A DNA stretch of 64,000 nt, taken from positions 124,001-188,000 of the forward strand of contig QPGO01000048.1 of assembly GCA_008632985.1 (NCBI GenBank), given 5' to 3'. Origin of the DNA: Psammoneis japonica. Lineage: Eukaryota. Below are positions 12,455-46,850 of the stretch, piece by piece. The position numbers and the translations under genes were made by a program. The notes under the pieces were generated by a model. It made no database searches, was not told the origin of the DNA, and worked only from the letters and a program-made list of their open reading frames with translations. Each line of letters begins with the position of its first letter. Position 1 is the stretch's first letter.

Positions 12455-12590
12455 ACCCCCACTGTTGTCTCCACCCCCCACTTCTGCCATTTTTGCTCCA
12501 CCCTGATGGATCTTTGTCATTTGGTGCTTGTTTCCACCCCCACTTCTGCCATTTTTGCTCCACCCTGGCAGATCCTTGTCATTTGTTGCT
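12455..12590. repeat. ~60-bp tandem duplication
   Basis: Two copies of ccacccccacttctgccatttttgctccaccctg...gatcyttgtcattt. Confidence 0.8.
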
Positions 12591-15500: not shown

Positions 15501-15789
15501 CTGGCGATCATTGTCTGCAACATTTTGCAAGCAGGAATTTTTTAGTGTCCTTTCATCAAATGCATTTTCAAAGTTTCATGTCACTTAAAACAACTTGAGT
15601 GATTTGCTCAATTGGTCTTCATTGCCAAAGCTCATCAATTGTAAATTCTCATTTGTTTGGCAGCTTGATGTTGAACATTGTTTGAATCACATGCAGCACA
15701 TGTCTGTTTTTGAAGAAGCTTTGTTTCTGTTGCTCTGGGGCTGCTTTTGCAACTGATTTTTGAAGCTGGCACACACATGCACAATGGTG

Positions 15790-16740
15790 CCAAACAACCC
15801 AGCAATTGCAAGATGAGGACACTGGCAGCATCTGGCAGGCCACAGGCTTGACACCACCACAAGAGCTGTTGTTGGGGGTTGCAACATTGATTTTGTGCTG
15901 TTGTGGCCCCATGTCAACAGACCTGAAGTTCCAAAGTCCCACACTGAAATGACCCCACAATGGCACCAACCAAGCTGACAGCTGCAAGCTGAGGGCACTG
16001 GTGGCATCTGGTGGACCCCAGGCAACACTTCAAGAACTGTGGCTGGGCATTGCACAAAGGTTGATCTTGTGGCATTGTGCCACTGTGTCATGTTGTGCCC
16101 AAAAGCAGCAGATTGAGCTTGCAAACTTCTGAGCAAAACAGCCCCATGACAGTGCCAACCAACATGTGACAGCTGGGAACATTGGTGGTCTCTGGCAAAT
16201 TCCCAGGCAACAGTTTAAGAACTGTGGTTGAAAATTGCAAGGTTGATGTTGTGGCATTGTGACTCCAAGCCACCTTGTGCCAAACAGAAGCATGCTGAAC
16301 TTCCAGACCCCAGAGTGAAAGGACCCCATGACAGTTCCAACCAACCCAAAAACTGCCAGCAGACACTGGCAGCAGCATGTGGCAGACCTGGGGCAAGACT
16401 TCAAGATCTGTTGTTGGGCATTTCAAGGTTGATCTTGTGGCTCCCACTGTGGCTCTGTGTCACTTTGTCCCCACAACAGGAGTGCAGTCTTGAGCTTCCA
16501 AACTCACAGCAAAAGGAGCCCATGATGGCACCAACTGACCTGACAGCTTCAAAGTGAGGGCACTGGTGGTGGTCTCTGGCAGGCCCCAAGTGACAGCTTG
16601 TCAACTGCGACTGGGCATTGGAAGATTGATCTTGTGGTGTTGTGGCCCCACATTCCTTGCCACACATGGCAGCAGACTTCTTGTCCCAACTCTAGAGTGC
16701 AAGGATCCCATTGGTTGGCTGCTGGGAAAAAGCTTGGGAT
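15790..16740. repeat. Diverged tandem repeat, unit ~175-195 bp, about five copies
   Basis: Anchor aaggttgatcttgtgg(c/t) variants at ~15883, 16057, 16239, 16425 and 16622, with recurring ccccatgacagt..caacc and cactggtgg..tctggca. Confidence 0.7.
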
Positions 16741-18408
16741 GAATGGCAGCCTTCTTCAAGGCAACTGCTGGGGTGCCCAATTTTTAGATCAGCGACATGT
16801 GTCTTTTTCCTGTTGGTTTTGTCTTTCTTGTGAAGTGTTGTTGGGTTTGTTGCCAGCAGATGAAGCAGCACAACATGAAATGACTGCACATGTGGCACCC
16901 CCTTGAAAGTGTTGCTGTTTGTGCTTCCAGCTGACAAAACAGTGTGAAGTCTCTGCAAATGCAACCCATTTCTCACATGGCATTGCCACTTGTTTCCAGT
17001 GCACAAAGCAGCACAGCACCACAGCAGCTGCAAATGTGACTCTTTTTCTCACACAATGTGCCCCTGCTTGCTTCCAGCAGGAGATGAAGCAGCATGGTGC
17101 TGCAAAGTGCCATCTGTGAGTGCAGTCTGTTTGATCAGAAATGGCGCTTGATTGTGACAGGAAAGATGGTGGCATTGCTGTCTCAAAACACATTTTGGTC
17201 CATGCAGCTGCCTCTGCATCTGATGAAACATGCACGGAGTTACAAATGTGTGAGAGCATGCACCACGTCCATCACAGCCAATGCAGCAGGAAAACAGACA
17301 TGGCAAAAACTCCTTGCAAACAGCATCAAAGCCAACACAAACCATGCACCCTTGTTGTGTCTTCTTTGACTTTGCCTCCACAGCATTTCATGACATTGCA
17401 TCTGTCTTATTGATGGAATGCAGCAAAGCCCAAAAACCCAGGTGCCACACTGACATCTGCCAGGAGCCAGACAAGGTTGAAAGTGGGTCCGTGGACTTCA
17501 CAAGCAAGCTGCCACCTTCTGACAGCAAGATGCCATGTTCAAGGTTGTGCTCATTTCACTTGGGATGGAATCTTGCAATCAAGTCCAGCACTTTGCCACA
17601 CCCAAGCTGGGGCATGCTGGCACACAATCAAAGCAGCAGCTGTGACCCCAACTTGCCATGCAGTCAGCTGGCTCCAATGCCCCATGTGCCATCTGCTGGT
17701 TGATTTGCATTGGAGCCTTCTCAGGCTCCAAAATCAACCGTTCCATGTGCTGAAACCCTTCACAGCTGCCTCCACTTTGGACTTGTCCATGGAGATTGGG
17801 CAACCCAGTTGTGCTGCAATCCAATGTGGTGCTTGTTGGTGTTGGAAAATCTTGAAGCAGCAGGGCACCAATCCAAAATGTTGGGCCCAATTGTGCAATC
17901 CCATGAATTCTCATCAATCAATGCTGGCAAAGGGTTCAATGGCACAAAGTTGGAATCAGCATCAAGTGCCAGGCAACATGTGAAGCGTGCAACAGCTTTG
18001 TCAAAATTGCTCACATGTTCTTCCAGGATTGGAGCTCTGGGGTGAACATTGTGAGCAGCTTGCACAACACTTGTGCCAGACCATTCTGAGAGCTGTGACA
18101 GAATGTTGTCAAAAACCTTTGCAAACACAATGTTGTGCATGTTTTTGTTGTGGTCAAGTTCTGAGGAGATCAGCTGTTGCCATCCAGGAGTGCTCAAACA
18201 AATGCACTCCCCAGCACTGCACACACAAGGAAGATTTTTATTTTGGCATGGTTTCCACCTGCAAGCACTGAAATCCACCTTGAAATGTGCAACTCTTGCA
18301 CCAAGGATTGCTGCATCACCACCCTCTGTCATGATGGCATCCATCTGACCCTCTGCCCCCATCTTCACAAACAGATGCTCTGCCTCAAATGGAGCTCATT
18401 CATGCTCC

Positions 18409-18620
18409 ATGTTGTTGTTGTTGTTGTTGTTGTTGNNNNNNNNNNNNNNNNNNNNNNNNNNNNNNNNNNNNNNNNNNNNNNNNNNNNNNNNNNNNNNNNN
18501 NNNNNNNNNNNNNNNNNNNNNNNNNNNNNNNNNNNNNNNNNNNNNNNNNNNNNNNNNNNNNNNNNNNNNNNNNNNNNNNNNNNNNNNNNNNNNNNNNNNN
18601 NNNNNNNNNNNNNNNNNNNN

Positions 18621-18663
<43 letters not shown>
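18409..18663. repeat. (TTG)n microsatellite spanning an assembly gap (N run 18436-18620)
   Basis: TTG repeats on both sides of the N run. Confidence 0.95.
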
Positions 18664-21600
18664 GCTTCATCTGTGATTCCACCAAGTGGCCAGCCATGTT
18701 TGCGCTTGGATTGCACAGAGCTTGGACATGCTTTGCTGCCTTGTCATGATCAGAACCAGGCATCAGAGTGCCTTGTTGGGCTCCACTGATGAACTCCTCC
18801 ATCCACTTGTTGGCTTCATGGACCAGCTCTGTTTCAAGCCTCTTGGGCCACACTCACCCATCAAACACTTGGGCTGCAGTGACACCCTGCAGATGCAAGC
18901 TTCCTGTGCATCAGCTGAAGAGCTGTGCTCTTTGGTGCATGTGGTGGATCTGACATCAAACACTGTGCTGTGACATGCTTGTGACAGTTGTTGTGCAGCC
19001 AAAGTAAAATGTCAACCCCAAGCCTTTTCCCTTTGGCATTGCTGAAGGGAGCAGAGGGTCAAGTGTTGATGGGACCAAGTGCCTTGGTGAGCTGCAGGCC
19101 TCTGATGCCCATCTTGCATGATGGGTGGTTTTGCAGTTGCTGGGTGAAACTCTCATGGAAAACAAGGCAAAAACTCTGAATCAGCATTCTCCCCCCAGCA
19201 TCAAATTTTGTGGAGCATGACATTTTGCGCGTGCATTTCTGCAGGGCACAAGACTCCTTGTGCAGCAGAAGCACCCCAAAATGCAGGCAATGGACACTCA
19301 AATGGAAGACCTTCCAACCAAATGAACAAAGTTGCATGCTTGAGACACCAATTGCAGCCATCATCTGTGCACATTCTTGATCATTGTAAAGAAAATGCCA
19401 GACATGTGACAGGCAATCATCACAGTGAAGTTGTTCATGAATCACAAATGACAGAACAAAGCACAGTTGAAGACATTTGTGAAAATTGTGCATTGGTGGA
19501 AATTGCAGTGACAAATGAATGTGAAAATTTACAACCACTGTTCATTGTTCTTCTTGTTGAGCATGGAAACATGTTGTCACAGATGCACACTGCAAAGCCA
19601 TGCAAAAAAATGGAGGGATCTGTTCACAGGAGCAACTCACTGCCTGCATGAAGAACAGCAGTTTTGAAACAGAGCACAACAGGCAGGTGTGGCACTGCCA
19701 GCTTGCCAGCTGTTTTGGCCATTGTGTTCTGGAGGAGATGCTGTGTGTCCCCCCCCCCCAAGGCAAGCCACTCTGCTGCTTTGATGATGCTGCACTTTTG
19801 TGTGATTGGCTGTCCACTCCTCCAAAATCTGAGAAGGGGTTCACACAGAAGCTCAGCCCATTTTTTCATGAACTGCATCTTCAAGTTTGCACAAGAAGCC
19901 ACTTGCAAAGGGACCAGCTGATGACCATCAGCTCTGTTGCTTGGGACACAACTCTCTCATCTTGTCAGTGGGAGTGAGGCAACTGTTGAAGAGCACTTTT
20001 TGGAGCAAAGGTCTCCCTTTGCTCACTCAGGTGTGCTTTCCAGCATTTCCTGCACTGCTGGAAAAGCTCTGACACAATTTGCAATGAACTGGCATGAAGA
20101 GATTTTGTTCCTTGTGTGCAATGTGTCACAAGCACAGCAAATTTTGTTGGGTGTGCACAATGCTCAGATGCAAGGCAATCTTTGCGCAACTGCCCTGCCC
20201 TGCCTCCTTGCCATGCCATGCCACCTCTTCTTCCTCATCTTTGTCCCTTGTGCCAGGAGACACTCTCTTTCTGTCTGGGTGCAATGAAAGTTTCAATGAT
20301 GTCATCAACAGCCACTGCCTTGATTTGTTTGTCTGTTGGAATCATTTGAAAAATGTCCATTTTTCTGTTGGGGAAATGTTTTGGTCAATGTTGAGCTGGT
20401 TGTTTTGGGAAAAGAAGAGTGTGCTTCATGGCAGACATTGCTTGTCCAACATGATGAGTGATGAGCACACAAAATCCAGCTGCAGGAAAGGTGGCTGCCA
20501 ATCCATGGTTGAGCACACAAGGTCTGTCACTCTTCTTTTTTGCTGCTTGCTGTTGGCCAACTTTTGCTCTGGAGGACATGCCACCAAAAGATGAGCATCT
20601 GCAATGCCAGCACAGCTCCCTCACCATTTCTCACAGCTGGGCATTTTTGGCTTCCATCGCACTTTGTGTGTCAAAGAAGAGGCTGCAACTTCCCATCTCT
20701 CTTGTTGTTTGTGCAGCTCTTTGTGCAAATCTCAGCCACTGTTGTGGCAACAAGGCACCCAATGCAGAGCTCCCTGCTGAGATGCCCCCCTCATGAGTCT
20801 GTGGCAGAGTCATTGCAGGCATGGCTGTGCTGCTGCTGCACCATGGCACAGGCCTTGTTTGGCACAATGACACAGTGCCCAAGCAAAAAACTCAAAAAAA
20901 CATGATTTGGGCAGAGACAGCTTGCCAAAGAAACAAACAACCCAGGCAAATGCACTTGATGACACAACACACTCCCAGCTCCATCATGAGTCATGTGAAC
21001 ATGATGCTCCCCAGACCCCAGACCAGCAGAAGCCAGCAATGCAGTCACAAGCAGCACCAGTGCAAAGGAAGCGAGTGGTTTCTGATGTCTTTTCCCTCTC
21101 AGCATGTTCCTTGCAAGCATTGCACATCACATCACTGCTGTCCTCCAAGGCCACCCATCTGGGTCAAAGAACACCCCTTTGGACAAGATGGAACACACTG
21201 CTTTTCTTGGACTCTCTTTGCTCACAATGTTTTTGTGGTGGCTGGCACCGTGTGTGCTCTCCAACACACACTGTTCCCATGAGGGGATGGGAAGGGGGGT
21301 GCAACAGCCGCCATGATGATGAGATGTCACTTGACTCCATTGGTGTTGCTCTCATGATCAAATTAAAAACCTTGCAGGTGGGTCCACACATGGACTGTGC
21401 AGGACTTGGATTGGGCAATGCAGGTGACCCAAATTTGGTGATGGAAAATTTGTGTGTGAACTGGCCCTGCCATGTCATGGGGTTCATGGACCTTGTCTCT
21501 GATGATGCTGCTCTCAAAGGCCTTTGTGAAGAAAACAACCAACCACCACTTGCATCGTCAGCTCCAGCTTGTGGGAATCCAGCCACACAAGAAAAAACTC

Positions 21601-22667: not shown

Positions 22668-23088
22668 CCTGCTTGTGGAAAAGCAGTTTAAACCACAATT
22701 TGGCAGCAGAAAAAAGCCTCGCAGCCCCTCGTCAACCCCTCATTGACAGCTCACGTGTTGAGATCTGTTCCTTGGTGGCATCTCTCCAATGAGAAACTGT
22801 TTTTCATCTTTGTTGATGATTTCTTTGGCTGAGACTTCGATTATCAGCTGCATTGTCCAATCTTCAGAGGTGCATTGTCAGAGGCAGTTTTTTCGTCGAT
22901 CGAACGGAAAGATGTTCTACTCGAGTACATGCGGTTCGAGACAACCGGAGCATTTTTTTGTCGTCTGCGCTGCGTCGTCCTGACAACAATCGGGCGGAAA
23001 CCAGACGGCGATTTCCAGATTGCTTGCGAATAGTACCGGCATGTATTACAGTGCCGGTACTCGATGGTTTATGTGCCTCCTGTAAACA

Positions 23089-24645
23089 ATGGCGGAATGC
23101 ATGCTGCAAAACTCGATTTCTAGCGACTGTTATGTCGGTATTGATGTTGGAACGCAAGGGACAAAGTGTGTTGCATATCATCCATTGCTTGGAGTCGTCG
23201 CTAGGGCGTCGTATGCATATGATTTGGCTGCCAATCCAGAAAACGTGAAAGGACGAGCAGAGCAGGACCCTGCAGTTTGGCTACTCGCGGTAAAGACTAG
23301 TCTCGGTCAGATTGCGGAGACTTTGGCTGCGAAGAAATTCGCTGTGGCTGGGGTAGGCGTTTCTGGTCAACAACATGGTATGGTGCCACTTTCTTCAGAT
23401 TTCCTTCCTCTTCGTCCGTGTAAACTGTGGTGCGACGTCGAAAGTGACCAGCAAGCACGTGAGTTCTCCTCGAAGGCATCCGATATCCTGAAACGATCCA
23501 TGTCTGTTCCAGCTGGATTTACAGCTCCGAAAATTCTTTGGTTAAAACAAAATGAACCCCTCATATATCATGAGACTCGGTGGTTTGTCTTGCCTCACGA
23601 TTTTGTTACGCTAAAGCTTGCCGGGAAATCATCCGGTGAGATACCCACTACCGATGCTGGAGATGCCAGTGGAACTGGGCTATGGGATGCGTCGTCCAGC
23701 ACATTTTTGCCTTGTCTGGCGGAGATTATCGATAGCGACCTCTATGCGAAGCTACCGAAAAGTTTGCCTCCAGGTTCCGTTGCTGGGTATCTCTCGTCAG
23801 CTTACAAATCACTTCTTGGGCAGGACAAAGCTGCAACAGTACCAATTTCTGTCGGGTCAGGAGACAACATGTGCAGTGCTTTGGGGGTGGGTTGTGTTGT
23901 TCCGGGTCGTGCAGTGCTTAGTCTGGGAACATCGGGCACGATTTTCGGTGTTTCATCAGCTCCGGTTGTTCCAGGTGAAACGGGGGTCGCTCCATTTCAG
24001 GACGCCACTGGTAAGCACCTGCCCTTAGTCTGTACGATGAGTTGCACTGGCGTGTTGCAGTATGTCTTGGATACATGGTGTGAGGGAATCTCACATGAAG
24101 AGGCTACCAACTTGGCGGAGGGCGTTGACGTGGGCTGTAACGGTGTCACTTTCCTTCCGTTCTTGGGAGGCGAAAGAACACCAAATTGGCCTCATGCCAC
24201 GGGAGCCTTGCTGGGCATGACTTCAAGCAATATTAGCAGGGAGAATCGTGTAGGCTTACTCTATAGGGCTGCTATGGAAGGTGTTACATTTGTTCTCGCT
24301 GACGCCCTGAAGGACCTTCAAAATGCATGCGGCAAGGGCTTTCATAATCTTGAAACGCTTTACGTTGTTGGTGGAGGCTCTCAGAACCCTTTGTGGCGTC
24401 AAATAATCTCTGATGTGCTTGGGGTAACGTTGAAGTTCCCGCTCGAGGCCGAAAGTGCGGCTCTCGGAGCGGCTTTTCAAGCTGGGGCGGCAGCGACGAA
24501 CACTCCCGTAGACAAGTACGTGTTGGAGCAAGAAATTCCGATGGAGGATGCTGTAGTCGTGCCAACCAACAGCCAGCAAGTTCAGGAGGCGTACAAAGAG
24601 GCACTTACGCGATACCACACCTGTTCAAGAAAACTGTTTCAGTAG
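23089..24645 (+). CDS. xylB: Xylulose kinase (FGGY carbohydrate kinase), intronless
   Basis: GIDVGTQGTK, GVSGQQHG, LWCD, FTAPKILWLK, GSGDNM, SLGTSG, FLPFLGGERTP and GGGSQN motifs. Confidence 0.9.
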   Translation: MAECMLQNSISSDCYVGIDVGTQGTKCVAYHPLLGVVARASYAYDLAANPENVKGRAEQDPAVWLLAVKTSLGQIAETLAAKKFAVAGVGVSGQQHGMVPLSSDFLPLRPCKLWCDVESDQQAREFSSKASDILKRSMSVPAGFTAPKILWLKQNEPLIYHETRWFVLPHDFVTLKLAGKSSGEIPTTDAGDASGTGLWDASSSTFLPCLAEIIDSDLYAKLPKSLPPGSVAGYLSSAYKSLLGQDKAATVPISVGSGDNMCSALGVGCVVPGRAVLSLGTSGTIFGVSSAPVVPGETGVAPFQDATGKHLPLVCTMSCTGVLQYVLDTWCEGISHEEATNLAEGVDVGCNGVTFLPFLGGERTPNWPHATGALLGMTSSNISRENRVGLLYRAAMEGVTFVLADALKDLQNACGKGFHNLETLYVVGGGSQNPLWRQIISDVLGVTLKFPLEAESAALGAAFQAGAAATNTPVDKYVLEQEIPMEDAVVVPTNSQQVQEAYKEALTRYHTCSRKLFQ

Positions 24646-24810: not shown

Positions 24811-26507
24811 TTATGTCTCAGCATTTTCTGTTAGCCCAGATTGAAGGCTAGAGAGCAGCACGTAGTTCGTAACCAAATTCTTGTGATCTAGAACTGCACC
24901 TGTTAGCGGACTTGTGTTTGACGTTTTCAACCAGCGCGCTATTGCACTGCGTTCATACGTGTGTCCGTCTGCGGCGACAACGGGGTCTCTCATTGGCAAG
25001 CCAGTAATAGGACAGCACGGCATACCTGGGAGGGGATCACGGTCGTCCGGCAGCTCTTCGTCACTAACTTGCAACTCATCAGGTGCTATGTCGCTTTCCG
25101 ACTCGAAATCAGCTTGTTCGACATCCTCAGCATCATTCGACGAATCATCGTCAGATAAGTTGGTTGGGTTGAAACGTCCATCCAAGTTTGTGACATGTAC
25201 AATATCTTCGATGGCCAACCCGACACCTCCTTTGCCCCAGCGGTTGAGCAAGGATATCCCTTCCTTTACGGCATCAGCGCCAACGGATAGAAGTCCTTCT
25301 TCCGGCACGCGCTCAACCGTTTCCGAAACTGTGGCTATAAGCGGCGAGAACGCTAGCCGCTCGGTGAGGTTAGCAAGCTCCTGCTGACATGTCTCAATTG
25401 CACCTTGGTAGTGTTCTTCGCAAATAAACATGAATCGATGCCCGGTGAAAGAGCACAACCAGCCCTCGGGGGAGTTGTATGATAAAACAAGTTCGTCGCC
25501 GTCCACTTCTTCTACAATGTATACCAAGCCTGGTGGAACAGGATACAAGTCAGACGCTGAGCAATAACTAGTGAAGCGGAGCTTATCACCAGGTCTAGGA
25601 GGTGGGTCTGTTGCCTCATACTCGCACACGATTCGCAATGTACCACTCGAGTTTTCAGTACCCAGCAAAGGGATCCATTCATCGATTGATGCAGTCTTCC
25701 CGGTCAAAATTGGAGTCACATCCACTGACGCCATCCCAAGGAACGGATCATCAGAATCGCCCTGATCTCCCATGCCCTTTGAGAGCTTTGTTGGATATTT
25801 CTCCAATTTACAACTGGTGCCGGTTGCGTGAAACAAAGCCACCGTCAGTATCGGTTTTGGAGGAGCCGGCAAGGTCAACTCACTCACACCATCTCTTTTC
25901 AGATTCTCCTCTTCATCAGAACTGGTATTCGAGGTAGCAGTTCCGGGTGCGTCATGGCCTGAATTAATTACAGGAAGGGACACATCGAAAAACATTGTTT
26001 CTCCACGCGGCCAAAGAGGGTTCGCGGTGTCGTACACTTCGGTCGTTCTTTGACTCTGCCCACAGTAGCGAACACTGGCATAGGGATTCACTGAGCTTCC
26101 CGGCGAATTCCGCGAGCGACTACGACGCAAGTCGCTGCTCGATCGTTTGTTACCAAAGAGAATATTTCCAAGTCCTCCTTTCTGTACAGGCTTCGATAAC
26201 AGTATCGCGTAAGAGGAATATTTCCATGTTTTGTGCAGACATCTGTAAAACGATTGCTTACCTCGAGATCTCTTGCAGCAACGACTCTCACAATCAACGT
26301 CCCCAGAATGTAGTCCGTGTAGCGAGATTTAGGTTTCTCGAACTCTGTAGGATCGTCATCTTCCACAAAATCTAGCAGTGAAAGGTCTAGATGATCATAT
26401 TCCGGTTCCGGTAGAGGTTCGAGCGAGTCACTCAATGGCCGTTCTGACATGCTTGTTGCTGCAGTCGTCGTCTTGAGCGTTGTTGTTGCGAGACCTCTCT
26501 TCGTCAT
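24811..26507 (-). CDS. C2-domain plus U-box E3 ubiquitin ligase; intron 26191-26261
   Basis: C2: GTLIVRVVAARDLE...NPYASV...DPFLG. U-box: CPITGLPMRDPVVAADGHTYERSAIARWL..SNTSPLTG. Confidence 0.85.
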
Positions 26508-27368: not shown

Positions 27369-29893
27369 CTAAAGATCATCATCTTCGATATCATCATCTC
27401 CGTCATCATCTTCGTAAAAGAAGTAATTGCCGTTCTTCTTCTGCTCGGCATCCTTTTGCGATCCTTGCTTATTGATCCTGTGAGCGAGAAAGAAAGAGAA
27501 GCAAATTTGTCAGCCAGAATGTTCTCACACACGATCCAGAATAGATGAATTGTTCACCTAACCGTTGAATCGTCCGGTTAGAAATTAAAACTAAGACTTA
27601 GAAAGAATCTTTCAGTGCCGAACGCTAAAACAGCGCCCGAGGGTAACGAATACCACACGGAAACCAGCGTAAAGAATGTATTCTCGTCATCCCAGACAAC
27701 AACAAAACTCCAACGTTTGTGATTGTTACAATAACTCACCTTGGTCGAAAGTTTGTTGGGTCCCTTCTGAACGTCACCTCCAAGCTCTTCAGGAACTCAT
27801 TCATACCGGTTAAAAGCCCCTGCGGACTTGACGCCGTGGCCTCAATCCCGGGTTGACCGTGGTAAACGACTACGCGATCCGCAAGATAGGTAGCCATGAT
27901 AAAATCATGCTCCACAACAAAGGCTGTTTTCTTACTGTGCATAATGAAACGTTTGATCACCTTCGCGCAATTGATACGCTGTTCAGAATCCAAGTAGGCA
28001 CTGGGTTCATCAATGAGATAGACATCCGCAGGAGTGCCGAGTGCCAGAACAATAGCGAGACGTTGCAACTCCCCACCTGACAAGTTCTGAACTCCGTTGT
28101 CGATAATGTTGTCAATAACAAGAGGTTTCATCACGTCGGAGACGAACTGAGGGTGAACATACGAATCACGAACACGTTTGTGAAGAAGTTGCCGGACGGT
28201 GCCCTGAAACTTTGGGGAAATCTTCTGGGGCTTGTAACTAACATTAAGATCCGGAGCACCGGCATTAGCAGCCTCGTAGGTCAACCCCTCTTCTTCAAAT
28301 TTGACTTGTTCGTCGCTTTTAAGGAGTCCTGCTAGCATTCGAACGAAAGTGGTTTTGCCGGTACCATTCTCCCCCAAAAGAACAATGATTTCAGAATCAG
28401 TGAATGACCCCTCTTCTATATGAAGTTTGAAGGAAGAGCCTTCCCTCGTCTGTGTCTTTGTCATTGAGGGATAAGAGTACCGCTTCATCTCGTCGTTCTT
28501 CACCTCCACGCCTTCAGCACGCTCGGAAACCTACGTTGAGCAAAACAAGACAGCATTAGAGGAAGGAGCATCAGCGTGCGCTTTTGGCCAGATCTTGCTT
28601 TCTCATACCTTGAACGAGAGAGCGTCCTGGCGGAATCTCAAGTTCTCCGTTGGGATAAATCCCGCCAGAAAAGCGTTGATACCCATACGGACACTGAACG
28701 GCATCGTGACGACACCGTACGCACCAGGAGTGCCATAGAGTACGCAAACATAATCACTTAGGTAGTCTAGGACAGCCAAGTCGTGCTCCACCACAAGTAC
28801 ATAGCGCCCGTATCCGTGGTCGCCATCGAGTAGCTGACGGATCATATGGGCCGCCGTAAGACGTTGCTTGACGTCGAGGTAGGATGACGGTTCATCAAAC
28901 ATGTAAACGTCGCTGCTCTGAACGGCAACAGCAGCAATAGCGAACCGCTGCAATTCACCACCAGACAAAACGCGGACATCACGTTGCAACAGATGGTTTA
29001 ACTCTGCCTCAGACGTGGCCCAGCTTAAAACATCCCAGTTTTCCGATTCGGTCCTCTGCGTGAAAGGCAATACGGAAAGGTTGAGACTACAAATGAAATA
29101 CGCCGATTGAACGGCCTTCCTTTCACAAAAACGAGTCTGGAACGCACCTCGTCCTTGCTCTTGAGAATATCCAGAACTTTTCCTTTGACTGCGCGGGGGA
29201 TATGGTCAACGTATTGCGGCTTAATTGTAGCTTTCATTGTGTCCTCTAGAATCTTCGTAAAGTAATTCTGCAGTTCCGAGCCGCGAAAGTACACCAAGAT
29301 CTCTTCCCAGTCGGGTTGATTTTCGTACCTCCCTAGATTCGGCTTCATCTTCCCAGCAAGAATCTTTAGTGCGGTGGACTTGCCAATACCGTTGGTCCCC
29401 ACGAGACCCAGTACCTGCCCTGGGCGAGGCATGGGCAAACGATGAAGCTTGAAGGAATTAGGGCCGTATCGGTGGGTTGTGTTACGTTCCAAGTCCTTTG
29501 GTAGGTTGATAATGCTGATGGCATCAAATGGGCACTTTTTCACACAGATACCGCATCCTATTGATTTACAGTGTGACAGTCGTTATATTGAATGTATAAG
29601 AGGTTGGACGCAAAAGCACGAGAACAAGCGTGACGGCACGGTACCGTGAAGCTCACTCCGCCCACTACACACTCACCAATACAGAGAGGCTCGGAAATAA
29701 AAGCAAGCTTGCTTTTAGGACCGACTTCTATGCAAAGTTTACCCAATTTAACAACTGGACAGCTCTTCTTGCATTCTTGGCGACACTTCTTCGGCTTACA
29801 CCGCTCCGCTTCCACAATCGCAATACGAGTCAGAGAGGATTCTCCGTCACCGCTGCCGCCAGCTGCTTTACCACCTTTCTTCTTCGGTGGCAT
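27369..29893 (-). CDS. ABCE1: ABCE1/RLI1 ribosome recycling ATPase, multi-exon
   Basis: Fe-S N-terminus [15 protein letters not shown], two ABC cassettes ([25 protein letters not shown]), and [11 protein letters not shown] spliced through a 262-bp intron (27478-27739) to [14 protein letters not shown]. Confidence 0.97.
27612..27690 (-). ncRNA. Candidate intronic box C/D snoRNA
   Basis: Box C-like ATGACGA (27690-27684) and box D CTGA (27615-27612) span 79 nt inside the unusually long last ABCE1 intron. Confidence 0.35.
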
Positions 29894-30357
29894 TTTCGCT
29901 TTCTCCTTCCTTTTACTATATGAAAGTGCTATCAATACCCGCTCGATGTTGTACGACCCGTCTCGAACAACAAACCTTTCAAGCACACAGCACACTTTCC
30001 AACTTTCAACTTGCTTCTTCGGAACCTTCGAACCTTCGAACTTCGTGATTTCTTGTGTCAGTCACCACTTACTAAAAACTAGGATCATTTATTTATCCAT
30101 TTATGTTAATGTTTATATTCATCGTACATCTCGGTACATTTTCTACACAATGCGAAATTAACATCCGCTCGTCCGTCATCCCTTCTTCACTGTACAGTAT
30201 GATACTCGAGTACGTACAGTATGTAGCCTACCGTACGACGACTCTCCATTTTGCACGGAAGAGAACAGACGGATTTTCTCCAAAGTGGGATGCGCGGAAG
30301 ATTTGAGCCAAACTTGTTCACCTGCGCACAGTTGTGACCAAGTTGCCGCACCCGACG

Positions 30358-32790
30358 ATGATGAATTCCTCACCCGTTCCCTCACTCTCAGGGACATTAC
30401 GGGTCGAGGAACTTGCAAAACTTCTCAAAGTCCCTGTTGGAGCAATTTTATGTGTTGAAATAGATGAATCAAAGCCTTGCGGGGTTGACAATTGCTGCTT
30501 GCCGTCAGCACGGCGAAACACACAAGGCGGACACAACAATGGACCCCGGTGCTTGTTTCATCGACAGTCATGGTTTCCAGTTGCCCCCAATGGCAAAGGC
30601 CATTTTCTTCTTGGTCCACAGTGCATGAGACCCGAAGACGCAAAAGGAAGGAAAACTTGCACACGCGACAACACTTTCTGTCATGGAATGGGGCGTTCAT
30701 CTCATGTGGTGCGCGTGCCGAAGAATTTGTCGCAACTGTCACAAGCGCTCTTGGAGTCAAACCTGAGCACTGAGAGAAAGTTTTGAATGATCCACGCAGT
30801 CAGGTGATTGCACCGTGGCACTTTCATCCTGAACATCGGCATTGTGACGAGTCGAACAAGTGCTGGCGCCTGAATCCGCACAACAGCGATGCAACATTCC
30901 GGGATTGGGAAAAGAAAAAGTGGGTTGGCTTTCCCCCCCCAAACTACAAAGTTGAGTTGCACAAAGAGATGGAAGAGCAAAGACGTGAGGTGCGGCCCCA
31001 AGAGCGATGGAAAGTGTCTTCCGGCATTGCATCAGACTCACCAGAGTGGTTTGGGCCACTTCTGACTGCACAGAGACGCGCCAAGAGGAACATGAAGACG
31101 AATGTTCCCGGCAGCAATGCTTCAAGGGGTGAAATTTCCAATCCTTTAAATGATGTCACCAATGCCCCGAGAACAGCCAGGTCAAGTGCAACAAAGTTGG
31201 TCACTCCAGATGCTGGCACCCCGCACTCCAACACAAGCATGCCGGCAGAGAAGCGTGCCGTGGTCATGACAGCTCGAGCTCAGAGTTTCAATGAAGAATT
31301 GGAGGACAAAAAGTTGGAGGTGGAGCACTTGAATAAAATGGTGGAGCAACTGAAGAAAAAGCTGTCTGACAAAGACAATGAAATGGGAGAGCTCCGTGTC
31401 AGAGCAGACAAGCAAGGGAAAACAATGGAGACATCAAAGACTCGGATTTCTGAATTGGAGTCCGAGCCAGAATGCGCCCGTGGTGAGCTGGTCGAGCTGT
31501 CTCAGCAAGCACCTCTGTCATGCAAGGACCTTGCACCCGGTGGTCACCTGGCAGATGCAAACAGTGCGCGCACCTTTTTCCCCGATTTTGAAGCTGGCGA
31601 GCGCTTCTTGGAAGTGCTGAACTGGAAAGACGGCGGCAATCCGGGTCTTGCAGAAGGACTGCGGCGTTGCAGCAAGGTTGGTCCAGGTGAACGCAAGGGT
31701 GATGTTGAGCCACCTGCTGCACACTCAACTGAACCAGAGCAACGGGTCGTCGATTGGAAAACGGAGCATTCATTTTCTGTCTTTGCTGTCATGTCGGATT
31801 AACTCAGGAAGCAATCGCCCCACTTGTTGGGATCAAAGCTGCTTCCATGGTTTCAGATGTCGTTCGGCAGTGGGCTGTTTTTCTGGACCGGTCGTTGACA
31901 CTGTGGTTTCGACTCCAAGCCGGAGCACATGTTGCGAGCGCATTCCGGCTAGATTTGTTCGGGCCTTTGGGCATGCTTCTATTTTCCTTGTTCTTGATGC
32001 CACAGAGGAGGAGGCACAGATGTCCTGCATGAAGACGGGGCATGCCACCATGCATTCTGAGTGCAAGGGCAGGGACACAATGAAGTTCTTTGGTGGCTCT
32101 GACCCCACTGGATGCACACATGAAGGCTCTCTGCCGAAAGATGGAGCGGCTGGCAGTTGTGGGGATTCAATCGGCACCGACATTTTCAAACTAATTGAAA
32201 ATGTGCCATTCGGGCATGCAGTCCAGGTTGACAAGGGGTTTCTCATTGATGATCTGTGTGCGTTGCTGGGAGTCGCGTGTGTCCGCCCCACGAAGAAACT
32301 GAAGCTACAGACTCAGCAGTCAAGCGAGGACACGGCTCCATGTCAGAAGATTGGGAATGCGAGAATTGTCATCGAACAGGTTAACGGGCATGCAAAGATG
32401 ACGGGTGGATGCTTCAACAGTGTCATCCCATTGCTTCAGCTGGACCTTGCTCCGTTTTGTTGATGCGGATTTGTTTTCTGATGCAGAACTTTCATCCTGC
32501 CATCATCCATGGGCAGTCGACGCATTGCGTCGATGGAAAACGTAGAGAACGTCCCTGCCGAGCAGAGATTCGCTGGTGTGGTGCTGCAGATGATGGTTTG
32601 GCAGATGTGTGTGGACAGGTTCACCTTTGGGGCACAGCGAGTGAGCGCAAGAGGTTTGCGGAGCTGGCAGAACAAGAGCCGGAAAAGTCGTTGGTCGATG
32701 TTGGTGAGATGGCACTTCGTGAAGACTGGCCTCGGAAACTCCGAGAGGAGCACAACAAATGCACTGGAACTGACAACTGGCTGTGTGACA
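30358..32790 (+). pseudogene. Transposase: THAP-like zinc finger, coiled coil, HTH_Tnp_4 and DDE_Tnp_4; frameshifted
   Basis: VLDATE, HSECKGRDTMKF (degenerate YSxYKxxxTxK), VQVDKGF, QQSSEDT...IGNARIVIEQVNG; GLTQEAIAPLVGI HTH; N-terminal C..C..RVP..WHF. Confidence 0.8.
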
Positions 32791-32799
32791 ACCCCCAGC

Positions 32800-35104
32800 A
32801 GTTGTGTCTGTGGAATGTGCTCAACCATTTGCAGTTAGTCCGGCTTTTCCATTGCGTCGTTCTGAGATGCTTGAATGGAGCTTGCACTGCTGGGTTGTCC
32901 TCAGAAAAACGCTTCCGATCCAGCATTCGTTGATGGCATGCATCATCGCCATGCATTTCACAATGAGGCCCGACACCCAAGTTGATGTTTCTCCATGTGT
33001 CCTTTGAGGCACATCTCTGAGCTTCCTCTTCTGTCTTTGGAGCTCGGCGGAATTGCATTTCTGAAAGTCCCTGAGTTCGCCATGCCGGCATTGTTGATTT
33101 CCTGCAATCCAGCAACATTTGTCCATCGCAACAGGCTTGGGAGTGCTTCTCTCTTCACCCCAATGATGGTGCTGGGTGTAGAGTGCACAGCAACGGTGTG
33201 TGCATTGACCAAAACCAGCAGTGCACGAAGCACAACAGCTGTCAATCACTCCAACAATGCGCCCAAGATTGTGCCCATCTTTTGCGAAGGCAGTCGGCTT
33301 AACTTGCAAGACCATGAAAACAAGATGCGGACAGAGCTCTTTTCGCTCACCTTTCTCTACCCTCTCTTTCTGATTCTTGTTCATAGATGCAAACTGTTTT
33401 GACAGCACACACAGTTTTGTCTTATCGTCCGAGAATGCAACAGTGTGAAGCTTCAATTCTCGGTGATCAAGAACCCGTTGGAGCGCCGTCCCGATGGTCT
33501 TCTGGCGCTTGCTTTCACCTGCACAGCCACAGCACTTGTGAACAAAGGAATCGCAAGCTCAGGGCTCTCAATTGCAATGTCCTCAAACTTGGCAAGAAAC
33601 CCTGGAGTAAAGATCAGCACGTCTTCATCTCAAATTTCAATTTCGCGTGTTCGGGTCTCTGAAAGAAATCCGCCGTCATGAGATTCTCCAGCAGTTCGTG
33701 AATTTTCACTCACGGGTCTCCAGTGTCAATGGCAAAGAAGGAACCCAATGTGCCTTTGTCCCGATTGAAAGCTTGTGCCAGATGAGGTTCCTCTGCCTCA
33801 AGAGAGACAAAGCCTTTTGTGCACTTTGTCAAATCGTCTTTTCGGAGCTTGTCCCCGCACTCGGAAGTGGTGTTGGCTCCACGAGCACTCAAGAAGCTCT
33901 TTAACTGTACAACATTGCATTGCTCTGGTTTGTCATTTGCAAGACAGCACCCAGCTACCTCAGTCTTAGAAAGCCATGATTTGTGCAGGTGGTTGTGCGG
34001 GTTGAAAGAAGATGGATTCTTGGAATCATTTTCAGAGAGCTCGCCACGAGGCGCAACTTCTCCCGCGGCATGTTTCCTTGTCACGACCGTGCTCGGCATC
34101 ACCAGTTTTCCATCAAGTTGCCTGACATTGCATTTAGAATCACAACAAAGGGCCCTTTCAGAAAAGCATTCAGTCACAACAGCGACATGCGCGGAAACCC
34201 TGTCCAACGTCCACGTGTCATCGAGCTTGTTGCTTCGAAGTGTGCATTCCACCACTTGTCGCAAACACAAAGACGTCTTTGACAAGTGATTGATGCTTGC
34301 TGATTGATTGACATTCAATTCTGGAGGGTTGCTGGATTCCTCGTTGATGAGTGCATTGAAAATTTCTAGAGCTGTCTTCTCACCAACACCCGGAAGACCG
34401 GATTGATCGGGCGTGCCATCACACCCACAAAGAGCGCCAAAGATCTGAAAGACTGAGTGACCAAAGGAACGGCAAGCATGAGGAAGTACAGCCATTTTGC
34501 TGCCTTCTGACAAAGCTCTTTCCATGCTGTCACTCTCCATGTCAAAGAAGCGGACACTCTCAGTGTGATGGGAGTCGACAATCAGCACTTTCTTGTGCCC
34601 GAACGCAAGCATGTCGGAGTCGCCAGAAATGACAACTTCTGTTCGATCCCCAGCAACAGGATGGTGCCAGAGCTGCAAGTCTGCCTCCTCTGGTGCAATG
34701 ATGGAAGACACCATGAATGAGTTGCAAACCTTCTTGGCCACAAGAATGCAAAGAGGTTCATTTCGCATCAAGTTGTTCCTCTCGTCGGAGGTGGAGTTCG
34801 TGTTGTCTCTTCTGGCACGTTCATGCCTCTTCCATTCAGAGTCCCTTCCATCAAAAGCAACAAAGAGCTTATCACCAAGATCACACATTCTGGCGAGATA
34901 ATTCAACATTAAAGAAAAGTCCCGCAAGGAAGGCCCGCAGTCTCCATTTGTGCGTGCACGCCTGTGTTGTCGGGCACACATGTGCAAAAGTCCGGCAACG
35001 TCAAAGCCAATCACTTTTCCTTGAAGACCAAGCTCATGGCTTGTCTTGAGAAAGTCATTGAACCTTCTGCATGGTGGGAGGGGTAGCAAACCGTGAATTC
35101 CCAT
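32800..35104 (-). pseudogene. Exo1/XPG-family 5' nuclease + SAP + SWIM zinc-finger fusion (transposon accessory gene), disrupted
   Basis: MGIHGLLP start, IGFDVAGLLH, VAFDG, APEEADLQL, VISGDSDML, CGCDG..LPGVGEKTA (H3TH); SAP-like CNVVQLKSFLSARG; SWIM CASCTAGFGQCTH. Confidence 0.8.
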
Positions 35105-35215
35105 CGCGACGCAAATTGTTCTCGCCTGATGATGACTGAAGTGTCTTGCAGCGTTTGAGGCCAAAATCTTCCGCGCATCCCACTTCGTCTGGCCATCTTC
35201 CGTGCAAAATGGTCT

Positions 35216-35314
35216 ATGACAGAGAGAGAGAGAGCTACCGTAGCTACTATAGTACCTGGTAGTAGAGAGCTTTGTAGAGCTCTCTAGAGAGTAGCTACTC
35301 TCTACTCTCTAGCT

Positions 35315-35345
<31 letters not shown>

Positions 35346-35560
35346 CTGAAGCCTTACCCTACTACTACTGGAATCTCCCTCTACTAGAGAGTAGGGCCCT
35401 CTCTATCTAGAGTAGCTTAGTAGCACCGACCGTGCGTAGTAGCGGCTGCCCACTTACTCAACCGTACTGTACGGTGTGGTAGAGTGCAGATACGATGATG
35501 GCTAAACCTCTCTACAACAGGATCCTAGTAGAGGGCCCTAGAGCCCTAGAGTCACTCATG
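35216..35560. repeat. TAG/CTA/(AG)n-rich low-complexity tract
   Basis: Same word composition as 26725-27255, including (AG)n runs. Confidence 0.8.
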
Positions 35561-35567
35561 AGGGCGC

Positions 35568-36388
35568 CTACTTGTTTTTTAGGTAAATGCTCCAGTTTAA
35601 GGCGCTTGCCACGAACACCCACCCACATGTTGGTAGCAAAAGCTTTCCGGCATTCTCATCAATTCCCCAGAACAATGCAGTGCTTGTCATTAAAAGCCCA
35701 AAGAAGATGCTGATGACAAAAGCTCCCCGGCCAGGACATTGCAATTCAAAAAACACTTTGTTCCACGCATCTCCCAATGCTAGGTGTCCGCAATAGACAG
35801 CCAATGCCTTCCAATGTTTGTTGTTTTCATCTTTAATGATACGCCTTAGCGCCAGCAGCTGTGTAGGTTTGGAAACGATGAGCCACATAATTGGGAAAAC
35901 CCATCCAGGTGGGTTCCATGCCGGCTTGAGAAGGTTCTCGTACCAATCTGGATCGCCAGGGAGTTCTGATGGGTCTAGAACTTGATTTGTTGCCACGGAC
36001 AATCCTCCATCCACAAGGCTGCCAAAGAAACTTGACGCAAAAATCACAGAAATACATGCGAGCCACTGCGGGAGTTGCAGTCCACCGATGGATTTCATGT
36101 CCAGCTTTGACGACAAATAGTTACCTCCAGATAGCACCCCAAGCAAAGCACCCGCTTCTGCTAGTGCACTGGTAGCAATTTTCAAGAAAAGCACCGGATC
36201 AGAGTCGCTGCAGGATCCTCCCCAATAGTGGTGATAGACACGCGAGAGACATCCTCTTGTTTGATATCCAGCACTCGGTTCAAGAAACTGGCCGCGGTGC
36301 GCTTTCTTAGAATAGTGGGTTCAACCGAAACTGCAACCATCGAAGCGCACGAGGCAATCGTTACAAGGAATAGAAGTACTACTCTCAT
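35568..36388 (-). CDS. TspO/MBR family protein with signal peptide; one apparent 1-nt frameshift near 36222
   Basis: WYENLLKPAWNPPGWVFPIMW, WNKVFF, LLLPTCGWVFVASALN. The upstream ORF 36182..36388 joins through (R)GGSCSDSDPVLF if one base is restored. Confidence 0.8.
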
Positions 36389-43974: not shown

Positions 43975-44600
43975 CTGGCAACAGTGGATGACATGTGCGC
44001 CAGCAAGAAAGAGTGAGAAAAGTCAAGCAGATCTCAGAGAGACAGATCTGCTCCTCATCTGTCCAGGTCTGAACATCATCCACACACTCGGTGCACTGAC
44101 ACCCTCCCCTGATCTGCAATGTCTTGTGAGACAAAGCAGGTCACAAAGAAAAAAATGCAACAGCATGTGGCACCCACCACATGAAAACAACCTTGCCAAT
44201 GGAAAGGTGAAAACGGACAATGCAAGAAATGGTCAAGCTCAACATGCACAGCAAAGAAACCCCGCAGGGAGCAACAAGCTGAAGAGCCCCCTGCAAACTG
44301 GCAACAGCGGGAAACACATGTGACAGTGAGAAAGAGTGAGAGAAGCAGATCTCAGAGAGATGTGCAAGTCTGTCCAGGTCTGACCATCATCCACACACTG
44401 GGTGTGTGCTGGTGACACCCTCCACTGATCTGCTGCAATGTCTTGCAAGACAAAGCAGGTTACAAAGAAATAAAAAATGTGATGGCATGCCACACCTGCC
44501 ATGAAAACAACCTTGCCATGTTGGAAAGATGCCACAACAAAACAAATGACACAAGAAACGGTCAAGCTCAACATGTGCAGCAAAGAAACCTCACAGGGCA
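43975..44600. repeat. ~320-bp tandem duplication with a third partial copy at ~46985-47120
   Basis: agcagatctcagaga...ctgtccaggtctga and catgaaaacaaccttgcca...ggtcaagctcaacatg recur. Confidence 0.7.
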
Positions 44601-44849
44601 ACAATTTCTCCACAAAGTCTCCAATGTCAGCAGGGCACATGTGTGCCAATCCACCAAGTCTTCAACAAAAAATTTCAATGGCAGTTCCCAAAAAATCTTG
44701 CAGATCAATGGAGTCTTGAACCAAAGAATGATTTTGTCAATCAACAAAAAATCAAAATTGAAGTCTGGCAAGTCACAATGTCACTAATCTCATCATCCAG
44801 CAAAATGGGGCAGGATGGAAATTCACCATGATGCACAATGCATTGAATG

Positions 44850-46850
44850 TGAAGCAATGGCAGCCCACCAGACAAATTCACACTTCTGGTGTGCCACATT
44901 TTGTTTCATCCCTGAAAAATGCAGTGGACAAACAAAGTGCATCACAAAAGTGCTCAATGTCTGAAGAACATTGACGTGTCACAGGTGAGCATCAAATGAC
45001 TTGCAAAAAACCATCACCGTGGAGAAAGTGTCTTGGAAGAATTTTGAACACTCAACAGCCTTGCATGCTTTCACTGCTGTGCCATGAGGATCCCAACCCT
45101 GCTCATGAAATGCAGGGTTGTCATTGGCGATGGTCGACAGGTTGGGAGCATCAGGAAAAATTGTGCCACTTGACACCACAATGGCCTGTCACAGCAGAAG
45201 GCAACAAGACTTGGTGACCCTCTTTCAGGGTCATCCCACTTCCATTGGACTTGCATGCTTCCTCTCTGCTGCACTTGATTCTCCCCTGATCAGAAAACAG
45301 AGGGTCGTCATCAGCAATGGAGACCAACATGCCAATGGTGGGGACCTTGGAGGAATGAGACAGCAGAGCAGAAAAAGCAACCACACATGGTGCAAGAGCA
45401 AACAACTGGAGAAAACAGCACATTTCTGATGTTGCTCTTCAACCCTGGAAAGCTCACTGGACAAATGGGGTGCAACCTGGAGTGAGACTTGATGTTGACA
45501 GAAGGTCGGTGCTTGGTGGGTGAGCATCCAGGGATGTGCAAATCTTGGCCACCCAGTGCTTCACCACTGGAAGAGTTGGAATGCTTGTCAATCCTGCACA
45601 CTTCCTCTGCACCTTGCTTGCTCTCCTGATCAGGAATCACAGGATCATCATCAGAGATGATTGATGGGTCTGGAGCACCATGAAAAGCACAGTTGTGTGC
45701 AACAATGGTCTGACAACAGAAGAAGAAAGAGACTGGGCAGCAGAGGGGAGCAAGACTCTGTGGCTCTCTTTCACAGCCTCCCTGCTTCAGCTGGTCTTGT
45801 CTGGATGATGGAAGGAACAGTGGCATCACATGTTGGAAATTGATGATGGCCGAGCCAAGAATCTGAAGTCAAGGGGACTTGACAACTGACAATGCTGCAA
45901 TCAAGATCAGCAATTGAACCTGCATGATGCACACACTTGGGCGCCACTGCTGGACAAGAGGTTCAGTGTCATGATCACAAAGAATGAGCGGGGCTTTGGC
46001 AAGAATGCCTGTGTGGGCATCTGCAACATCATCTGGCATCAAGCTGACATTTTGGTGCAAAGCGCCCCATTGGTGAACATCACAAAGCAAAGCAACCTGA
46101 TGGCAAAGATCCTTGAATGCAATGGGCACAAGGGGTTCTCCACAATGCCCACCAAGTGTCACACATGACATTGAGGGACTTGATGCATCATCCCCACACC
46201 AAGTCCACAAAAAGATCAGACATGAAAATCAATGGAGAAGTTTCATCCAAGGATGGCAGAGACAAAACCACTCACTTGGATGCTTGTGGTGCAAGAGAGA
46301 ACTTGTTCCAGTCCATGCAAGGCCATTGCAGATCAGAGTTGAAGTGCACATGCTCCATGCCAAAACTGCAATTCACGCTGTTGTCACGCCAGCACTGAGA
46401 GCAAGTTGGATCTTCTGCTCAAGTGTCTGTCCAGAGAGGCAAGATGCAGAGTTACAAACACTTTGAACTTCAACCTTGAGAGCAGCTTGTCTGATGACTG
46501 ATGCAACAGCTGCTGCATCCTTGGGGTTCCTCACTCCTCACACAAGGTGTGATGAACTTGTGAAGGACATGGCCCCACATGAGCTTGTGAATGCCATCCT
46601 TGGCTTGGGCATCATGTTTGCTGTTTTCAAAAAACTGATCCAGGTCAAGAATTGTGTCACCACAAGTGTCACTCAGGAACTTCATGCCATCAGGGAAATG
46701 AGGGGTTTTCTTGAAAAAACAAAATCAATCACAACAAGTGCACCAGCAACACTCTTTTCAAACTTGCGATCTGTCACAGTGCAAGTGTGCAAAAGTTTTT
46801 GATCATGAACATGTGAAAACCTGGCACTGGTCTGCATGGCCTGTGCGCCA
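44850..46850 (-). mobile_element. Ty1/copia RT-RNase H remnant
   Basis: MALHGLEQ (from KALYGLKQ) at ~46301-46327, VIDFVFSRK upstream, and HFVCPLHFFRDETKCG (from KHIxxxYHFFRD) at ~44890-44940. Confidence 0.6.

Follow-up and report, generated by a model that had tools for sequence, protein, structure and literature searches.

Several lineages of DNA transposons encode a second protein beside their transposase. According to the accessible text of two sources, ISL2EU elements join a transposase with THAP, helix-turn-helix (HTH) and DDE parts to a YqaJ protein encoded by a second open reading frame (ORF) (PMC4482050, PMC4122938); they make AT duplications (target A-AT-T), and their terminal inverted repeats (TIRs) are usually GG-led (PMC4482050). 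Harbinger elements, in the same accessible text, have a Myb-like partner protein and TWA duplications (PMC4482050). Accessory nucleases also appear in the accessible descriptions of AcademX (with 3-4 bp duplications; PMC10045372) and of the Kolobok lineages, where KolobokE has a lambda-exonuclease-like enzyme, KolobokD a DnaQ and KolobokP a His-Me type (PMC9587614). Here, we report an element in a 64,000-nucleotide stretch of Psammoneis japonica DNA (GenBank assembly GCA_008632985.1, contig QPGO01000048.1, positions 124,001 to 188,000; hereafter the window, in which all positions are numbered from its first letter). The element (30246-35212, 4,967 bases) is probably a decayed cut-and-paste transposon of the PHIS superfamily (IS5-related; PIF/Harbinger, ISL2EU, Spy, Pangu, and Nuwa), from a two-gene lineage with an accessory nuclease that would work on 5' strands.

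The transposase gene lies on the plus strand and the nuclease gene, convergent with it, on the minus strand. Judged by its predicted proteins, the lineage has a transposase of ~830 amino acids with a Cys-rich N-terminus, a coiled coil, an HTH_Tnp_4 domain, a DDE_Tnp_4 core and a conserved tail; modelling suggests that its accessory protein (~725-770 amino acids) consists of an Exo1-like 5' nuclease domain, a SAP-like motif, a helical linker and a SWIM-type finger. Accessory enzymes reveal what a transposase cannot do alone. This lineage has retained its Exo1-like nuclease under purifying selection across diatoms, in the place that a lambda-type 5'-3' exonuclease takes in the ISL2EU elements of animals, which suggests that transposition of this kind needs its 5' strands processed or resected.

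Two convergent genes between inverted repeats

The imperfect TIRs (Table 1) were compared in a gapped alignment of their arms (30246-30313 against 35212-35153), which differ by an indel of 11 bases. The terminal core matched at 17 of 17 positions (30246-30262 and 35196-35212) and the subterminal block at 22 of 22 (30283-30304 and 35164-35185). Both patterns occur twice in the 64 kb; none of 100 shuffles reached two copies of the core, the chance expectation for the block was 0, and the TIRs are far beyond chance. A subterminal GGCTCAAA motif, placed symmetrically near both ends of three related metagenome elements (L006, L008, and L010, described below), has a degenerate copy in the left TIR of the window (~30305-30313) and is a candidate transposase binding site.

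The transposase was read in five frame pieces on the plus strand. DDE_Tnp_4 was matched within 31621-32463 (Pfam; E = 6.6e-7, 29.5 bits, cut-off 24.8), with the DDE motifs legible as LDATE, VDKGF, and IEQVNG, and this core and the TIRs together place the element in the PHIS superfamily. The L006 homologue matched DDE_Tnp_4 at E = 1.1e-17 and HTH_Tnp_4 at E = 3.6e-4, the latter under its cut-off. The HTH piece of the window (31733-32032) matched no Pfam family at E ≤ 0.01; it is a putative HTH, identified solely through likeness to relatives. Transposase homologues numbered 81 at E ≤ 1e-5, most of them with PF13359 precomputed, and those with names came from Thalassiosira oceanica, T. exigua, Thalassiosira sp., Cyclotella atomus, and Attheya sp. 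As a separate observation, the frame breaks within ~10 codons of a conserved DWKTE(W/F) motif in both the window (~31768) and L006 (~3801-3815), just before the HTH and at differing positions in the two; L010 and L004 are continuous there.

The nuclease ORF starts with MGIHGLLP at 35104 on the minus strand and is open for 465 codons, up to an in-frame TGA (33707-33709) beyond which homology continues in the same frame. Downstream pieces in other frames were assigned to the same protein because homologues run through them. An intron between 33710 and 33558 was rejected, since GT/AG candidates fail to join the frames and the homology is that of an in-frame stop plus frameshifts. Pfam gave XPG_I (E = 3.7e-4) and XPG_N (E = 0.008) on the window nuclease, both below cut-offs, and only these two families, weakly, in 10 of 19 homologues. 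The best PDB match of the window nuclease was human EXO1, with the acidic motifs aligned, and a family profile matched EXO1 at 3.7e-21, FEN1 at 2.5e-13, and Rad2/XPG at ~1e-9. Invariant positions in a 16-row alignment (A1) were D35, D85, D142, D162, D164, and D229, with E140 nearly so (window numbering), and a K..E..RR motif was invariant or nearly so in 16 diverse members. By its N- and I-region carboxylates and its H3TH, the protein is a predicted XPG/Rad2 5' nuclease.

The L006 nuclease was modelled with AlphaFold (94-row alignment, 730 residues; predicted local distance difference test [pLDDT], 87.4; predicted template modelling score [pTM], 0.81). The top 14 Foldseek rows for this model were human EXO1, and structural alignment with VIA-align gave EXO1 at Z 24.1 (296 aligned residues, root-mean-square deviation [rmsd] 3.4), ahead of XPG (Z 18.4), FEN1 (Z 16.9), and GEN1 (Z 16.8). 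The pTM, taken over the whole chain, suggests that the SWIM domain and helical linker would be packed on the nuclease domain.

A word-based homologue search with the window nuclease gave no match. At thresholds of E ≤ 1e-3, 1e-10, and 1e-30, a full HMMER scan of 1.84 billion protein representatives gave 155, 61, and 10 relatives, respectively. The closest share 30-36% identity over all 465 residues, and many relatives, 700-780 amino acids long, carry on into a SAP-like motif, a linker, and a C..C.AG.G.C.H finger like those of the window protein. SWIM-type positions C238, C241, C249, and H251 are invariant in an alignment of the tails (A3). The named members are diatoms, namely Skeletonema potamos and, as a transcript, Extubocellulus spinifer; in diatom annotations, such genes are likely to appear under "5'-3' exonuclease" or among the hypothetical proteins of the host.

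Pfam found no YqaJ or Viral_alk_exo in 36 element ORFs (7 plus 29 further), the 19 homologues, or 9 tails. Myb/SANT was likewise found by Pfam in none of the 36 ORFs, the 29 further ones matched no Pfam family, and the two genes of L010 leave no space for a third. The VIA-align list for the L006 model held no YqaJ or PD-(D/E)xK chain, but the nuclease domain fills that list, so nothing is excluded by it. The original prediction, made from the sequence of the window, had described imperfect TIRs around a convergent transposase and nuclease, a nuclease with an MGIHGLLP start, XPG acidic motifs and an H3TH, and no visible YqaJ motif; all of these were borne out.

A pairing shared by other loci

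A scan with the nuclease family alignment (A2) found 13 metagenome loci, five of which were matched by the transposase pieces with tblastn (L004, L006, L008, L010, and L013). In all five, the transposase follows immediately downstream of the nuclease in convergent orientation, its DDE core is 44-46% identical to that of the window, and nuclease protein identity to the window is 26-36%. Six of the other eight loci have <500 bases downstream and cannot be judged. Inverted repeats enclose the nuclease in the window, L006, L008, and L010. In L010, which looks intact, each gene is a single open frame (nuclease, 723 amino acids; transposase, 832 amino acids), with inverted repeats outside; L006 has an open 730-amino-acid nuclease and a two-piece transposase between perfect 20-nucleotide repeats. 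L008 (whole) and L009 (840-3734) are deletion derivatives, with 99.97% identity to each other from the repeat's first base onward, in which the HTH and DDE parts are lost and a 755-amino-acid nuclease is still open. Apparently intact elements of the L010 type, together with transformable diatoms, make a natural test system.

In a maximum-likelihood tree, 60 family rows were split from 5 canonical-type XPG rows (100/99). The window falls in a 12-row clade (97/89), which joins the clade of L006, L008, and L010 in a 38-row clade (97/89); nuclease-transposase linkage therefore spans that clade. The ratio of nonsynonymous to synonymous substitution rates between the L007 and L008 nucleases was 0.105 (the ratio was saturated for more distant pairs), and the nuclease is under purifying selection. 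The pairing thus characterizes the lineage, and the nuclease is the lineage's own, being neither a recent capture nor a one-off one. The swap of a YqaJ for this nuclease, which the original prediction had inferred, and capture from the host, which it had put forward as a possibility, are unsupported; the nuclease sits in a deep family of its own, split from the canonical-type rows.

Proposed role of the nuclease and competing readings

The DDE transposase would bind the ends and carry out 3'-OH cuts and strand transfer, and the nuclease, with its SAP and SWIM parts guiding it to DNA, would act on 5' strands. Two roles suggest themselves by analogy, both plausible and neither one probable when taken singly. 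At the ends, the nuclease may cleave or trim back the 5' strand that is not transferred, or a flap, like TnsA in Tn7, or it may resect the donor break 5' to 3', like Exo1, in which case repair of the gap from a sister copy would let the donor site retain the element. Such a job would be of the kind presumed for the YqaJ/lambda-type 5'-3' exonuclease of ISL2EU.

A further proposal, tentative and on the whole doubtful, is that the SAP-SWIM tail is a shared chassis of ISL2EU-type accessory proteins, to which animals add a YqaJ/lambda-type exonuclease and diatoms an Exo1-type one. By ESM features, the tail was nearest to animal SAP/SWIM clusters (score, 0.88), with SAP in 49-64% of the members of the nearest clusters, and near a mollusc cluster (score, 0.83; 41% Viral_alk_exo, 34% YqaJ, and 33% SAP); both are leads only. 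A homologue search with tail alignment A3 returned 4 family members and no YqaJ-bearing relative, so it is ESM alone that links the tail to animal ISL2EU proteins, and the same alignment gave only chance-level rows against PDB profiles. If the chassis is shared, two unrelated 5'-3' nuclease folds would have been recruited to one scaffold for the same step, element-supplied 5'-strand resection or flap removal would be obligatory in this IS5-like branch, and the branch would either predate the animal-stramenopile split or have moved between the two.

Several points weigh against the reading of the element as a two-gene PHIS transposon with its own 5' nuclease, and they concern the outer domains, the ends, the state of the copies, and solo nucleases. 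Pfam called no SAP, SWIM, or THAP in the window, the 19 homologues, or the 9 tails (the tails to E ≤ 10). The SAP-like motif and SWIM finger that had been predicted are in the sequence, and the fold of a homologue matches them, but these matches have only middling Z values and were obtained with a protein 26% identical to that of the window: L006 model residues 481-618 against ZSWIM8 gave Z 6.0 (97 residues, rmsd 2.8), and residues ~354-411 against SAP domains stayed at the level of chance rows (2do1, Z 4.6; 1zrj, Z 4.5; SLX4 SAP, Z 4.5). Of the predicted THAP-like/HTH/DDE_Tnp_4 transposase, the DDE part stands above its cut-off and the HTH through its likeness to L006, but THAP went undetected by Pfam at E ≤ 1 in the window and L006 transposases. 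An alignment of the transposase N-terminus (A5) gave only chance-level rows and no THAP against PDB profiles, and its AlphaFold model (5 sequences; pLDDT, 44) was unusable. The nearest ESM clusters of this N-terminus are THAP (score, 0.83; 71% and 32% of members), which offers a weak lead; a C..C...FP...PWH motif is readable in it, and the APWHF..RHR motif is possibly the end of a THAP-like module.

The target-site duplication is ambiguous (AT, TCT, or none). The window flanks read AC then TCT at the left and TCT then AT at the right; no 3-bp direct repeat other than TCT stands at the ends, and TCT does not agree with a TWA target. The right-hand TCT is common to 3 other contigs of the same DNA run (the set of contigs used for the copies below), left-end contigs diverge at 30246, and the left TCT is not common to other copies in the run. 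Read on the opposite strand, the right end is AT followed by AGACCATT (AT, then AGACCAT), which resembles both ends of L010 (AT, then AGACC); the repeats of L006 (AT, then TCTCAC) and L008/L009 (AT, then TGACCAG) likewise open with AT. Being self-complementary, AT could be either a duplication of the ISL2EU type or part of the TIR. We doubt TCT/TCT as a target duplication because the right TCT is shared by contigs and the relatives have AT-led ends, and the element may in fact extend 3 bases beyond the given termini at both ends (30243-35215). No GG start was seen at the window ends, which read CCATTTTG or AGACCATT, or in L006 (TCTCAC), L008 (TGACCAG), and L010 (AGACC). ISL2EU membership is unproven because THAP is undetected, the duplication is ambiguous, and a GG start is missing; of the ISL2EU likeness that had been predicted, the two-gene layout stands, with YqaJ, the GG start, and a detectable THAP wanting.

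The window copy is dead, both genes being broken (transposase, at least 4 frame changes; nuclease, 1 in-frame stop and at least 2 frame changes). In favour of the transposon reading, contigs from one DNA run, which may come from the source sample, suggest several copies in the genome. Read depth, the sum of which is not a copy number, was ~58 on both flanks versus 94-420 in the interior bins of the element, nuclease gene included; this several-fold depth over the nuclease gene and the pair in 5 of the 13 metagenome loci support a nuclease that is more than a one-off passenger. The stretch attracted 238 contig pieces (88 at ≥99% identity, 68 at 95-99%, 41 at 90-95%, and 41 at <90%), and loose contig ends with unlike flanks start at exactly 30246 and at 35208-35215. 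Transitions account for 447 of 546 differing places among copies, many as neighbouring TG/CA pairs, and CpG observed/expected was 0.69 in the element versus 1.03 and 0.87 in the flanks, which fits several diverged, probably methylated, decaying copies in the genome. One contig skips 31448-32200, with 751 bases of the transposase gene gone. Other copies have indels at the frame-change places of the window (30725, 31768, 32455, 33552, and 33615); when these were applied, the longest plus-strand ORF grew from 342 to 419 amino acids (31768) or 436 amino acids (32455), the nuclease frame was not lengthened, and no intact copy was found in the contigs of the run.

Nucleases without a transposase occur in L001 (4.7 kb downstream) and L002 (2.4 kb downstream). 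The intact 726-amino-acid nuclease-SAP-SWIM gene of L001 (3847-6024, equal to locus L003) sits between leucine-rich-repeat protein genes in inverted orientation and a RING-variant ORF, and the L002 nuclease (1478-2662) shares only its first 1.2 kb with L001, at 96.7% identity. L001 nests among transposase-linked rows, in a 5-row group with L010 (97/92) inside a 21-row clade (100/99). We infer that L001 and L002 are derived solo or domesticated copies; solo nucleases such as L001 may be domesticated or stranded.

Among the alternatives, the one that survives best, though we hold it to be less probable than not, is that the element belongs to an already catalogued diatom Harbinger-like family (in Repbase or Dfam, for example) whose second ORF was merely undiscussed. 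Transposase homologues are common in Thalassiosirales, and the accessible text on Thalassiosira pseudonana reports Harbinger-like DNA transposons as a notable share of its transposable elements (PMC2806351). Among openly searchable full texts (Repbase, Dfam, and subscription papers lie outside these), however, no paper was found to join an XPG/FEN1/Exo1 nuclease with Harbinger, ISL2EU, or diatom transposons; the PHIS survey, as far as its text is accessible, gives Myb or YqaJ alone as second ORFs (PMC4482050), and ISL2EU is described from animals in the accessible part of another source (PMC9179366). The new architecture that had been claimed has to be qualified in view of AcademX, which in the accessible text also carries a nuclease (PMC10045372).

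We consider it unlikely that the accessory protein is not a nuclease in transposition but a DNA-binding or recruiting factor, or one that interferes with host repair or rival elements. Modules such as its SAP-like and SWIM-like parts typically serve in binding, and the second protein of Harbinger is, in the accessible text, a pure DNA-binding and import factor (PMC9179366); yet all catalytic carboxylates and the K..E..RR motif are kept, or nearly so, in 16 members, which would be unexpected for a mere scaffold. Still more improbable is a diatom host gene family of nuclease-SAP-SWIM proteins that transposons picked up or adjoin, with the solo state original. The solo genes of L001 and L002, the E. 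spinifer transcript, and the strong purifying selection would all suit a host family, but such selection is equally expected for a transposon's own gene. Moreover, the nuclease lies inside inverted repeats in the window and three other loci, its region has several-fold flank depth and transposon-like decay in the genome of the window, the solo L001 gene nests inside the transposase-linked clade, and deletion derivatives retain the nuclease. A one-off capture of host EXO1 or FEN1 by a single Harbinger copy, for which one could cite host-type EXO1 as the closest solved structure, is scarcely credible and is refuted as far as the data reach by the multi-copy depth of the nuclease region, the same pair in 5 of 13 loci of other organisms at 26-36% protein identity, the few canonical XPG-type proteins at E ≤ 1e-3 (only a handful, at ranks 113-147 among the 150 matches listed), and the 100/99 split of the tree.

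The window is eukaryotic in type, with short GT..AG introns in its host genes (Table 1). The element lies ~200-350 bases upstream of the start of an ABCE1-like gene, and (GA)n microsatellite tracts stand directly outside its right end (35218-35347). Elsewhere, 12001-20000 and 44001-52000 have CpG observed/expected of 0.05-0.15, with TpG and CpA at 1.7-2.1, a depletion far stronger than that in the element (0.69); the largest ORFs of these two segments matched no Pfam family, and the segments are probably old, heavily deaminated repeats.

Table 1. Coordinates of the element's parts and of host genes in the 64,000-nucleotide window
Feature	Position	Strand/frame	Remarks
Left TIR	30246..30313	+	17-nt core 30246-30262, 22-nt block 30283-30304
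Right TIR	35153..35212	-	core 35196-35212, block 35164-35185; 11 nt shorter than left arm
TCT beside left end	30243..30245		perfect 3-bp direct repeat with 35213-35215; candidate target-site duplication
TCT then AT beside right end	35213..35217		TCT possibly the element's final 3 bases, with AT as target dinucleotide
Transposase piece 1	30358..30786	+, frame 1	from ATG; Cys-rich N-terminus (C..C...C..C, QSWFP)
Transposase piece 2	30774..31802	+, frame 3	APWHF..RHR motif, linker, coiled coil
Transposase piece 3	31733..32032	+, frame 2	putative helix-turn-helix region (LTQEAIAPLVGIK...)
Transposase piece 4	31621..32463	+, frame 1	DDE_Tnp_4 catalytic core; D, D and E motifs kept
Transposase piece 5	32385..32933	+, frame 3	conserved C-terminal tail
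Nuclease N-terminal ORF	33710..35104	-	XPG-N, XPG-I, H3TH (Exo1-like), then SAP-like motif
SAP-like helix-loop-helix	33809..33928 (approx.)	-	VVQLKSFLSARGANTT...LRKDDL
Nuclease linker piece	33453..33629	-, other frame	FEDIAIESPEL; fits family DF..I...PE motif
Nuclease C-terminal piece	32821..33558	-, frame -2	SWIM-like domain; CCASCTAGFGQCTH at 33196-33237, then HHWGEERSTPKP
Nuclease last tail piece	32864..33088	-, frame -1	aligns with residues 683-758 of homologue P0002
ABCE1-like gene	28603-30061	-	short introns; left neighbour of element
TspO gene	35568-36320	-	right neighbour of element
DHFR gene	9745-10416		host gene
FGGY sugar kinase gene	23086-24645		host gene
U-box/C2 protein gene	24811-26328		host gene

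Comparison with described systems

Read as a PHIS transposon with an accessory nuclease of its own, the element resembles PIF/Harbinger in its DDE_Tnp_4 and HTH_Tnp_4 parts, its TIRs, its two genes, and a possible 3-bp duplication. PIF/Harbinger elements differ in having a Myb/SANT protein and a TWA target in the accessible description (PMC4482050), where the element has no such protein and TCT. The element's transposase is also roughly twice as long, with a predicted Cys-rich N-terminus and coiled coil.

Like AcademX, the element represents a DNA transposon lineage with an accessory nuclease. The AcademX nuclease is reportedly of the XPG type, and we know of no SAP-SWIM tail in AcademX. The two were compared by description only, and the AcademX transposase belongs to another superfamily (Academ, not IS5/PHIS). 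Kolobok has the same theme, in that lineages of one superfamily each recruit their own nuclease or helicase beside a DDE transposase, in a different superfamily and with different nuclease folds.

Cellular EXO1 (with FEN1, GEN1, and XPG/Rad2) shares its fold and all active-site residues with the N-terminal 330 residues of the element's nuclease, as well as the MGI.GLL start and the GCD motif of the H3TH. Identity is only 15-18%, however, and the element's nuclease forms a separate deep clade inside a mobile element, with the C-terminal partner-binding region of EXO1 replaced by the SAP-SWIM tail.

ISL2EU resembles the element in having two genes, one for a long DDE transposase of the IS5/PIF type, which carries a zinc module at its N-terminus and an HTH, and one for an accessory protein of the 5'-3' nuclease type; the AT-led repeats of L006, L008/L009, and L010 fit the AT target dinucleotide. 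Unlike the element, ISL2EU has GG-led TIRs; its THAP was not detected by Pfam in the element, and the window flanks are TCT/TCT rather than AT/AT. The accessory enzyme of ISL2EU has a YqaJ/lambda-exonuclease fold, whereas that of the element has an XPG/Exo1 fold, and ISL2EU is hosted by animals in the accessible description (PMC9179366), whereas the hosts of the element appear to be diatoms.

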